Positions 44,977-46,449 of a DNA stretch of 58,859 nt are shown in pieces. Source of the stretch: Clostridia bacterium. Lineage in GTDB: Bacteria; Bacillota; Clostridia; TANB77; CAG-508. The translations under genes were made by a program, and so were the position numbers. The notes under the pieces were generated by a model that saw only the letters and a list, made by a program, of their open reading frames with translations, was not told the DNA's origin and did not search any database. The first letter of the stretch is position 1; every line of letters begins with the position of its first letter. Location: NCBI GenBank assembly GCA_017434295.1, contig JAFRFO010000044.1, forward strand, positions 1-58,859, in the 5' to 3' direction.

Positions 44977-46449
44977 ATGTACAAAAAAACGGAAAAAACA
45001 AAAGCAACTAAAACTAAAATACTAAAACAATTAAAACAAAGCAAGGGTATTACGCTAATCGCGTTAATAATTACAATTATCGTGTTACTAATATTAGCAG
45101 GAGTAACAATAGCACAAATAGCAGGTAATGATAGTGCAGCAAACAAAGCAGTAGAGGCAAGAACCAAAAACGACCAGGGAGCTGAATTTGATGCAATAAA
45201 ACTAGCAACAGTAAGTGCTATAGCAGAAGGAGATTATAACTTATATGTAAATGCAGAAGCATTAAAAAGAGGTTTAGAGGGAGTAGTTGAAGAGGATAGT
45301 AGACAAGCAATAACAGCTACAAATTACCCATGGACAGTAATAGGAAAGACAACAACCATGTATGAAATAACAAGAACTGGAGAAGTAGAAGCTGTAGATC
45401 CACCAGTATTGGTATCAGAAACAGATAGTTTAATAACAGTAAATGTAGAATCATTTGCTGCATTAAAAGGATATGAAAAACTACCATCAACAACCAAAAA
45501 CTTAAAAGCAATAAAAAATGCTGGACAATCAAATGAACAACAAATGATAGTGCCAGCAGGATTTACAGTAGTAGAAGGAAATAAATTAGAAGATGGAATG
45601 GTAATAAGAGATGTAACATATACAAATACAAATGGAAGTGAATTTGTATGGGTACCAGTAGGACAAATATTAACATTTGCAGGAACACAAGGAACAGGAA
45701 CTATAACTCTTTCAAGATACTCATTTGATTCAAATACAGGAGCAGCAACAGCCAAAGATCCAACAACTATAATATCTCCATGTTACACAGAAAATGCAAC
45801 ATCATTTACTGCAACTGATAATAAAACACATCAAGCAACAGTTGCAAGAACAGTGACAAATAATAATGTAACAGAAATAGAATTTGTAAAACAAGCAATA
45901 GCAAATAAAGGATATTATATAGGAAGATTCGAAGCAGGCTTAAGTGGAACAGAAAATAATAATAGTTTAACAACAAAAACAGCAGTAGATGGAAGTGTAA
46001 AACCAGTAACAATAGCTGGAAGAGGAGTATGGAACAAAATAACTCGTGATAATGCTAAAACAGTGAGTCAAGGAATGTATACTAACGATACTTCAAAATT
46101 CAAAAGTGAATTATTAACAAGTTATGCCTGGGATACAGCAGTAGTATTTATACAAAAATGTGGAAATAATGCAACATATTCAAAACAAAATAGTTTTAAT
46201 ACAGGTTTGCCAACAACCACAGGAAGTGCAACAAAAAATGGTGTAAATGATGTACAATGTAATATATATGATATGGCATCAAATGTAGGAGAATGGACAA
46301 CAGAATACTCTAGCGATTCCGGCGATCCGTGCGTTAATCGTGGAGGTAGATACGACTACAGCACCTACTACGTAAGGTCACGTGGCCGCAACGATACTTC
46401 CGCCAGCAACAACAACTACGGTTTCCGCCCACTTTTATATATTATGTAG
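44977..46449 (+). CDS. Pilin-like-leader protein with C-terminal FGE-sulfatase (CLec-fold) domain; candidate DGR target
   Basis: N-terminus 'KGITLIALIITIIVLLILAGVTIAQ'. C-terminus 'GYYIGRFEAG', 'NVGEWTTEY', 'RGGRYDYSTYYVRSRGRNDTSASNNNYGFRP'. The last ~120 nt switch to GC-rich codons. Confidence 0.7.
   Translation: MYKKTEKTKATKTKILKQLKQSKGITLIALIITIIVLLILAGVTIAQIAGNDSAANKAVEARTKNDQGAEFDAIKLATVSAIAEGDYNLYVNAEALKRGLEGVVEEDSRQAITATNYPWTVIGKTTTMYEITRTGEVEAVDPPVLVSETDSLITVNVESFAALKGYEKLPSTTKNLKAIKNAGQSNEQQMIVPAGFTVVEGNKLEDGMVIRDVTYTNTNGSEFVWVPVGQILTFAGTQGTGTITLSRYSFDSNTGAATAKDPTTIISPCYTENATSFTATDNKTHQATVARTVTNNNVTEIEFVKQAIANKGYYIGRFEAGLSGTENNNSLTTKTAVDGSVKPVTIAGRGVWNKITRDNAKTVSQGMYTNDTSKFKSELLTSYAWDTAVVFIQKCGNNATYSKQNSFNTGLPTTTGSATKNGVNDVQCNIYDMASNVGEWTTEYSSDSGDPCVNRGGRYDYSTYYVRSRGRNDTSASNNNYGFRPLLYIM

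Follow-up and report, generated by a model that had tools for sequence, protein, structure and literature searches.

How does a gene in an AT-rich clostridial genome come to end in about 120 nucleotides (nt) of GC-rich codons, and what wrote that ending? The gene occupies positions 44977-46449 on the forward strand of a 58,859-nt stretch of Clostridia bacterium DNA (contig JAFRFO010000044.1 of assembly GCA_017434295.1); we refer to this whole stretch as the window. The open reading frame (ORF) encodes 490 amino acids and is a 100% match to P0001, from the NCBI metagenome-assembled genome (MAG) 'Clostridia bacterium' IJH76_02890. A first-pass annotation, made from the letters alone, proposed that the 3' end is the variable region (VR) of a diversity-generating retroelement (DGR) whose reverse transcriptase (RT), Avd protein and template repeat (TR) lie outside the window. 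We conclude that the VR was very probably written by DGR retrohoming. Four observations carry this reading: the compositional signature of the tail, its homology to VRs with proven TRs, a divergence from a close relative that is confined to the VR, and flanking signals that have been retained. From these we infer retrohoming on this very copy and, less firmly, the persistence of a cassette in this genome.

Composition, homologues and divergence of the variable region

The translated ORF ends in ...EWTTEYSSDSGDPCVNRGGRYDYSTYYVRSRGRNDTSASNNNYGFRPLLYIM before the stop codon. The tail sequence and translation quoted in the first-pass annotation are correct, and so is the flip in codon usage that it described: the G+C fraction at third codon positions (GC3) is 0.11 and the A fraction (A3) 0.63 in the gene body, compared with 0.59 and 0.17 in the tail. 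Measured in 120-nt steps, GC content is 0.29-0.30 over 46100-46279, reaches 0.49 from 46280 and drops back after 46460. We compared the tail with 2,452 sliding 40-codon windows from every ORF of at least 150 amino acids in the window (mean GC3 0.14, standard deviation 0.077). The three 40-codon windows on the tail, with GC3 values of 0.575-0.625, are about 6 standard deviations over the mean and at the top of the distribution; a single other ORF (54769-55416) equals them. That ORF, the sole other compositional outlier of the window, has a weak thymidylate-kinase/P-loop match and a GC3 of 0.52-0.62, with A3 down to 0.025, along much of its length.

The boundaries of the VR (46303-46433, forward strand) are set by homology to the VR/TR pair of the family locus L054, which spans GAAAC.. 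to ..TTCCGCCCACT; the variable codons lie at 46315-46419. Its variable residues belong to the set encoded by NNY codons (Y, pyrimidine), except for Arg458 (AGA) and Ser469 (TCA), and A is avoided at synonymous sites. We call a VR 'fresh' when GC3 is ≥0.4 and A3 is ≤0.2, and by this measure the copy in the window is fresh, as is the TR-linked VR of L054 (GC3/A3 of 0.53/0.09). A low-A3, high-GC3 tail is found across the family: 37 of the 54 recognisable VRs of loci from GTDB genomes carry the fresh signature and 15 have a low GC3. The low-GC3 examples that we inspected also contain K, E, Q or W residues, as would be expected of VRs that have drifted without a template. The VR of P0007, a paralogue in the same genome, is not fresh (0.27/0.21).

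The homologue family is large: a search at E ≤ 1e-3 yields more than 4,241 proteins, and the species-representative genomes of GTDB contain at least 563 loci, nearly all of them titled uncultured Clostridia or Clostridium MAGs; it belongs to uncultured gut and rumen Clostridia. Several copies per genome are frequent, some in tandem, and the best match to the window gene among the GTDB representatives is 39%. All members have the motif ...EWTTE..S..PCV.RGG.Y..S..YTS.R....TS......GFRPLLY, in which the residues between conserved positions are mostly N, S, T, I, D, G, A, V, H, R, L, Y, C and F, the NNY codon set. The first-pass annotation had named a GC-rich patch conserved identically in non-DGR homologues as evidence that would speak against a DGR; a patch unchanged across distant homologues is excluded.

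Some members have a DGR cassette alongside. In L054, which comes from a GTDB MAG, the genes after the homologue are one with MutS domain I (MutS_I), a bAvd-like gene and an RVT_1 RT with the motifs IGNYTSQ and YMDD, and then comes the TR. This TR repeats the 3' end of the homologue over 137 nt, with 23 mismatches, of which 22 fall at TR adenines (in AAT and AAC codons). The TR/VR homology stops at ...TTCCGCCCACT, and TR copies diverge exactly past CCCACT. Relatives of the L054 RT led to complete cassettes of target, MutS-like (MSL) gene, bAvd and RT in L100-L102 and L103; an RVT_1 domain was also found beside the homologues in L100 and L103. Across the 75-nt aligned part of the L100 TR, 9/9 mismatches are at adenines, and a JGI contig (L115) holds MSL, bAvd, RT and a TR. 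The RT clade comprises 2,931 proteins at E ≤ 1e-10, the best 120 of which are all at least 77% identical, and it has no close relative in IMG/VR. As the clade is similar in size to the target family, many target-bearing genomes should hold an RT. These comparisons support the assignment of the family of the window gene as a DGR target family.

Some of the cassettes are damaged. The L054 cassette (2338-3392) has lost about 330 nt across the end of Avd and the start of the RT, which joins Avd residues 1-73 to the RT from about residue 55, despite the adenine-type TR/VR mismatches. The decayed cassette of L072 (around 1900-4050) retains MSL residues 1-101, Avd 61-121 and RT residues 1-76 only. 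The TR of L100 (11076-11150) matches just the first 75 nt of its own VR; the RT of that locus, P0217, is present in 110 assembly-index blocks.

The closest relative of the window protein, P0002 (locus L004), has 80% protein identity. At the DNA level, the two loci are 97% identical over 46210-46299, 73-83% identical over 46300-46419 and 97-100% identical over 46420-46479, which indicates that the VR was rewritten in one or both lineages after a very recent split. The VR holds around 27 differences where the flank rate predicts around 3. Codon positions 1 and 2 account for 21 of 26 VR substitutions, compared with 41 of 69 in the gene body. Two further patches within the gene, 45670-45699 and 46150-46209, are also variable. 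With the cassettes of the homologues and the family-wide tail, this VR-confined divergence upholds the proposal of a DGR variable region.

In the mechanism that we propose, a TR RNA, A-rich at its AAY codons, would be reverse-transcribed by the DGR RT together with Avd and a MutS-like accessory protein. The TR adenines would be copied as random bases, and the cDNA would replace the VR as far as the conserved boundary ...TTCCGCCCACT. The copy in the window would be a stand-alone target that is served in trans by a chromosomal cassette elsewhere, or that was served until recently. Rewriting of this kind would make the patch follow the codon choices of the TR (few third-position A, and C or G endings) and not those of the AT-rich genome, and would yield near-NNY variable residues and a divergence that ends sharply at both edges.

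The 3' boundary and downstream hairpins

By homology, the 3' boundary of the VR (GGTTTCCGCCCACTTTTATAT..TAG plus GTCTGATAGCTTAAGTGCTAAAA; 46420-46472, forward strand) is a candidate homing signal of the initiation of mutagenic homing (IMH) type. TTCCGCCCACTTTTATA, which forms the 3' edge of the VR, matches the VR ends of L054 and L072 base for base (17/17 by BLAST with L072). Many family loci carry the motif nnCTGAAnGCTwAAGnCG, either after the stop codon or within a reading frame that runs through it, and it is kept whether it is translated or not.

Further downstream on the same strand are a small hairpin, CCAGTT-TTAA-AGCTGG (46490-46505), which is conserved in L004 and L107, and a twin-hairpin module (46523-46608; fold z-score -7.85) made up of hairpin 1 (46523-46554) and the long hairpin 2 (46553-46608). 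In the family, hairpin 1 has a stem of 7-10 bp and a loop of 8-12 nt, and the stem of hairpin 2 is about 15-30 bp depending on lineage. Fold and sequence place a GGTGGCGCCACC palindrome with a terminator-like hairpin, and then a T-run, at 46610-46655; a matching element, ACGTGGCGCCAC..ACGTGGCGTTTTTT, lies upstream of the MutS-like gene in the L054, L072 and L100 cassettes.

Twin-hairpin modules recur about 95-100 nt past the FR codon in L100, L035, L026, L070, L042, L039 and L030. Of nine other loci folded at this offset, eight gave z-scores of -5.1 to -9.65 and L030 gave -1.4; in the best folds of L004 and L054, hairpin 2 alone is clear. The module thus occurs in cassette-linked loci (L054, L100 and L035) and in loci in which no cassette gene was detected (L004, L026, L070, L042, L039 and L030). 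A twin-hairpin module with a GTGGCGCCAC-type palindrome is also listed for L107 and L072. The stem sequences differ by lineage, and paired changes on both sides of a stem among the window, L004 and L107 preserve pairing. A MAFFT alignment of hairpin 1 put two lineage groups in different registers and yielded no common alignment or structure string. Rfam holds no family for these hairpins, returning chance-level miRNA-like matches only, and we found no description of the twin-hairpin module.

In phage BPP-1, an IMH boundary and a downstream hairpin are enough for targeting (PMC3240598). By analogy, the boundary and hairpins in the window may act as homing signals; a role as a terminator or mRNA stabiliser is an alternative for the hairpins. 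A crude test for a link between the hairpin module and a fresh VR was not significant (10/41 versus 2/14). We also consider a bolder and doubtful proposal, that boundary and twin-hairpin module together form a portable homing signal, by which one highly conserved MSL-Avd-RT-TR cassette rewrites many dispersed pilin-like adhesin genes, and genomes without a cassette, the present one among them, keep 'ready' VRs until a cassette is present or is acquired horizontally. If that were true, cassette and targets would evolve decoupled, and surveys that start from the RT would miss most DGR targets of gut Clostridia.

A separate, recurrent terminator-like palindrome that resembles repetitive extragenic palindromic (REP) elements, GGTCAATTGG..CCAATTGACC, occurs in the window at 39857-39890 and 44465-44500 and in L104 at 6283-6323. 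It trails unrelated genes: valS, an M23 peptidase gene and, in another species, the orthologue P0005.

The missing template and the rival explanations

We surveyed the 80 best GTDB loci for cassette genes, with up to 10 kb of flanking DNA per side. Seventy-seven have none, and the three that do are L054, L072 and L035, in the last of which an MSL gene starts at the contig end. Within genomes, the VR scaffolds of paralogues are alike, third positions included, and differences fall at positions 1 and 2. In the genome CAUWEX, L041 and L082 are 97-98% identical in the body, and the identity of their VRs at codon positions 1, 2 and 3 is 0.69, 0.76 and 0.93; in CAZQTH, body identity between L049 and L057 is 98%, with corresponding VR values of 0.64, 0.57 and 0.76. 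No cassette gene was found in these four loci, and VR-confined divergence of paralogues in cassette-less loci is the outcome predicted by trans-acting mutagenic retrohoming. L061 and L082 (GTDB MAG CAUWEX01) have VRs that are 100% identical and bodies that are 81% identical, which could reflect conversion, one cDNA used twice or an assembly artefact.

The site in the window is also found without a cassette in a related species. The gene order is spoIIAA-AB-sigF-spoIID-M23-[gene]-yabP-yabQ, and the orthologue P0005 (58% identity) occupies the same chromosomal site, between spoIID/M23-peptidase and yabP/yabQ, with no cassette; no cassette need therefore ever have stood at the site in the window.

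A number of results weigh against retrohoming on this copy, or against a cassette that still serves it. The statement of the first-pass annotation that RT, Avd and TR are lacking from the window was borne out: a generic repeat search, blastn-short and an adenine-tolerant ungapped scan found no repeat of the VR in the 58.9 kb (the best candidates of the last scan still have 26-27 non-adenine mismatches in 122 nt), and tblastn with the cassette proteins found no RT, Avd or MutS-like ORF (best E 0.19-0.45). No TR, RT, Avd or MSL is present in 21 kb around P0007. Scans of IMG/VR (twice) and of JGI metagenomes, with patterns that fit any VR variant or TR, recovered no cognate TR. IMG/VR holds distant family members only, without a TR-like repeat or an ORF with RT motifs; the strict JGI scan returned nothing, and a looser pattern picked up three GC-rich contigs by chance, the family VR L114 and the TR of L115, which we rejected as the cognate TR because it has 18 non-adenine mismatches in 120 nt. 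Third-position differences from L004 within the VR (6 of 26 counted by eye, 5 by a per-position tally of the codon alignment) need a diverged TR or ordinary drift. Hypervariability of the VR among strains, which the first-pass annotation suggested looking for, did not appear: the window matches three assemblies at 100% (a Logan contig from SRR12529037), 99.81% (scaffold_163, SAMN15829912) and 99.59% (the third), and these consensus sequences, which differ by 0.2-0.4% elsewhere, show zero differences across 43899-49232, so that the whole gene is identical in all three. Static VRs are found in relatives as well: that of P0002 is unchanged across three runs, and 44 related database proteins (the P0027-like group; mean identity 96%, minimum 83%) share one invariant VR. 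At the population scale, VRs of the family are often frozen. Cassette decay is frequent (L054, L072 and L100). For the VR domain, a Foldseek search of the PDB gave no match below E = 0.75. The P0027-like proteins vary elsewhere, chiefly around residues 81-120 and 201-260.

Two further candidates were set aside. P0007 is not a second VR of the same TR, as the third positions of its scaffold differ and its composition is decayed. A phage origin was rejected because tblastn found no match in 50,697 GenBank phages and the RT clade is absent from IMG/VR. The cognate TR would be expected to match CCGTGCGTNNNNCGTGGNGGTNNNTNCNNNNNNNGCNNNNNNTNCGTNNGGNNNCGT...GGTTTCCGNCC; in this clade, it would be expected to have GGGATAAATC before it and CTCTAATAC...AAGGAATATATACA...GTATTAGTATTAAAGAG after it.

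Taking both sides together, we lean slightly towards the VR being a remote target whose cognate cassette is still present elsewhere in the genome and serves it in trans. This reading is favoured by the VR's fresh composition and recent rewriting, by signals that are intact, by an abundant RT clade and by trans diversification in related genomes.

Alternatively, the VR was written by a DGR whose cognate cassette has since been lost or inactivated, which would leave a frozen allele that will drift slowly to AT-rich codon usage; we regard this as possible, if somewhat improbable. It would account for the absence of cassette genes from the window and from the surroundings of P0007, and for a VR that is identical in three assemblies of 99.6-100% identity. 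It also fits the common occurrence of frozen alleles (the 44 proteins with one VR, and P0002 in three runs), the decay seen directly in L054 and L072, a TR in L100 that covers part of its VR, and the existence of decayed VRs, including that of P0007 in the same genome. Downstream of the hairpin module stands a 3.1-kb insert containing a toxin-antitoxin pair and a PDDEXK_2 gene, and PDDEXK_2-like DNA lies near the RT stump of L072. Against an orphaned VR, the composition of this one is no less extreme than in VRs linked to a TR, and its rewriting postdates a split since which the flanks have diverged by only about 3%. Boundary and hairpins remain intact, RT clade and targets are of similar abundance, and the lack of a cassette at the orthologous P0005 site is likewise at odds with a loss at this one.

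Explanations that dispense with a DGR are, taken altogether, unlikely. The better of them, which we think quite unlikely in itself, is a hypervariable loop produced by diversifying selection or by gene conversion between paralogues, with the GC-rich codons a by-product. The family is multi-copy and often in tandem, the identical VRs of L061 and L082 on bodies of 81% identity look like conversion, and the gene itself is mosaic, with similarity to P0002 in its 3' part and the DNA beyond and to P0005 in position and N-terminus; the other variable patches in the gene point the same way. Yet selection or conversion leaves unexplained why A should be avoided at third positions in a genome in which A3 is 0.63, why variable residues are nearly restricted to the NNY set, and why TR/VR mismatches beside an RT in homologues are adenine-specific; nor does the window contain a donor copy. 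A short segment acquired or recombined from a GC-richer organism, with no mechanistic meaning, would suit the sharp compositional boundaries and the second outlier ORF (54769-55416), but is extremely improbable given that the same patch recurs at the same place and in the same frame in hundreds of homologues from AT-rich genomes, with the reading frame and scaffold residues (PCV.RGG...GFRP) kept.

The gene product, its site and comparison with known systems

The product is probably a surface-displayed, ligand-binding protein. A pilin-like N-terminal segment, KG|ITLIALIITIIVLLILAG, is encoded at 45034-45108 (forward strand), with two features of a class III signal, a Gly at -1 and a hydrophobic helix of 20 residues. 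At +5, where type IV pilins and pseudopilins have Glu, the window protein has Ala (G|ITLIA). Tip-located minor pseudopilins such as GspK are known without Glu5. The Pfam N_methyl profile gives E = 0.15 for the window protein and E < 0.01 in 20 of 31 family members, and the family profile matches the N-termini of geopilin and PilE1 in the PDB (E = 7.5e-5 and 1e-3). The homologue L008 adjoins prepilin peptidase, T2SSE and T2SSF genes. We therefore treat 'pilin-like' as a lead and not as membership of the type IV pilins; an association with a pilus is suggested by just the N-terminal motif and this one neighbourhood.

The first-pass annotation had called the gene an FGE-sulfatase gene. For the window protein this is overstated, because the match to PF03781 scores 13.9 bits (E = 0.045), short of the gathering threshold of 23.3, and covers profile positions 165-252 of 255, the C-terminal third. 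The resemblance is stronger in relatives, with 11 of 31 family members matching at E < 0.01 (best E = 1.8e-5). The candidate FGE/C-type-lectin-like domain comprises residues 412-484 (46210-46428, forward strand), with weak profile matches to SUMF2, FGE and PorK. An AlphaFold model built from the 31-sequence alignment has predicted local distance difference test (pLDDT) values of 44-54 across the VR domain, too poor for a check of the fold. We read the C-terminus as resembling the FGE fold, which is not an enzyme assignment.

Between the downstream module of the gene and yabP, the window has an extra 3.1 kb that contains a small ORF, a Gp49/helix-turn-helix (HTH) toxin-antitoxin pair and a PDDEXK_2 gene. 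This insert is absent from the orthologous site in L104-L106. Direct repeats (47260-47498 and 48391-48629; 98% and 86% identical) bracket the Gp49/HigB-like toxin and HTH antitoxin, and the PDDEXK_2 (Rpn-like) gene is at 48716-49618. In L072, DNA that is 73% identical to the 3' end of this gene (49467-49618) lies about 1.3 kb past the RT stump, which hints at an involvement of Rpn-like elements in cassette loss. The paralogue P0007 is in an integrase-flanked island; its VR is decayed and its VR scaffold is not shared with the window gene.

Elsewhere in the window, a perfect 60-nt direct repeat (25973-26032 and 28285-28344), GC-richer than its surroundings, encloses 2.3 kb, in which none of the three ORFs has a Pfam match; the repeat could be the trace of a small inserted element or come from a duplicated regulatory RNA. 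An ORF at 24916-25920 (334 amino acids) consists of five repeats of about 150 nt, each a winged-helix/MarR-type HTH.

DGR surveys anchor on the RT and seek a nearby TR/VR pair. The VR in the window was recognised by composition alone. The largest metagenome survey of DGRs states that it is blind to remote targets (PMC8144416), and G-type pilin domains have been reported only as rare VR-bearing domains (PMC11661182). Our results suggest that remote or orphaned DGR targets may be far commoner in gut and rumen Clostridia than catalogues indicate. They also show that a local drop in third-position A can flag such targets without an RT. If the product is a pilus-tip adhesin, the locus would be part of the variation in surface binding of these uncultured bacteria. 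For the window locus itself, the result is confirmatory and not surprising.

Neisseria varies its pilin antigenically by gene conversion between pilE and pilS. The window gene is similar in its pilin-like product, hypervariable C-terminal part and multiple gene copies, and differs in that variation in the homologues is templated by adenines and linked to an RT, with no copying from silent cassettes, and that the window has no donor copy. Another DGR of a gut bacterium also varies a pilus-associated, probably adhesive protein; it differs in phylum, protein family and pilus system, the signal in the window protein being type IV-like. In Legionella, LdtA is a lipoprotein. The target in the window has a pilin-like N-terminus instead of a lipoprotein signal, and the window lacks accessory genes; the homologue cassettes, with the order target, MutS_I-domain gene, bAvd, RT and TR, are like the Legionella DGR with MSL and Avd (PMC5758913).

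As in BPP-1 Mtd (PMC3240598), TR/VR homology in the family ends at a conserved 3' edge of the VR, with inverted repeats downstream. The BPP-1-type hairpin has a GC-rich stem of 7-10 bp and a 4-nt GRNA loop and lies 4-34 bp from the VR (PMC3240598), whereas the hairpins of this family have a loop of 8-12 nt and a second stem of about 15-30 bp, are about 90 nt downstream and have a putative role in homing.

Chromosomal DGRs are known to have remote targets and MSL accessory genes, and TvpA of Treponema denticola with its seven dispersed relatives ('Lineage 4' DGRs; Wu et al. 2018, PMC5758913) offers the comparison for a remote target. There too, the VR is at the C-terminus of an FGE-type C-type-lectin-like domain (here weakly assigned), several paralogous targets per genome are far from the RT, and the DGR is chromosomal and not phage-borne (the RT of our family has no close IMG/VR relative). 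Unlike in Lineage 4, the membership of the window copy is deduced from its homologues, its own TR and RT having not been found, and the family is much larger (at least 563 loci, with 77 of the 80 examined lacking a cassette). By homology, the gene in the window would belong to a known kind, the remote targets of chromosomal DGRs with MSL and Avd.

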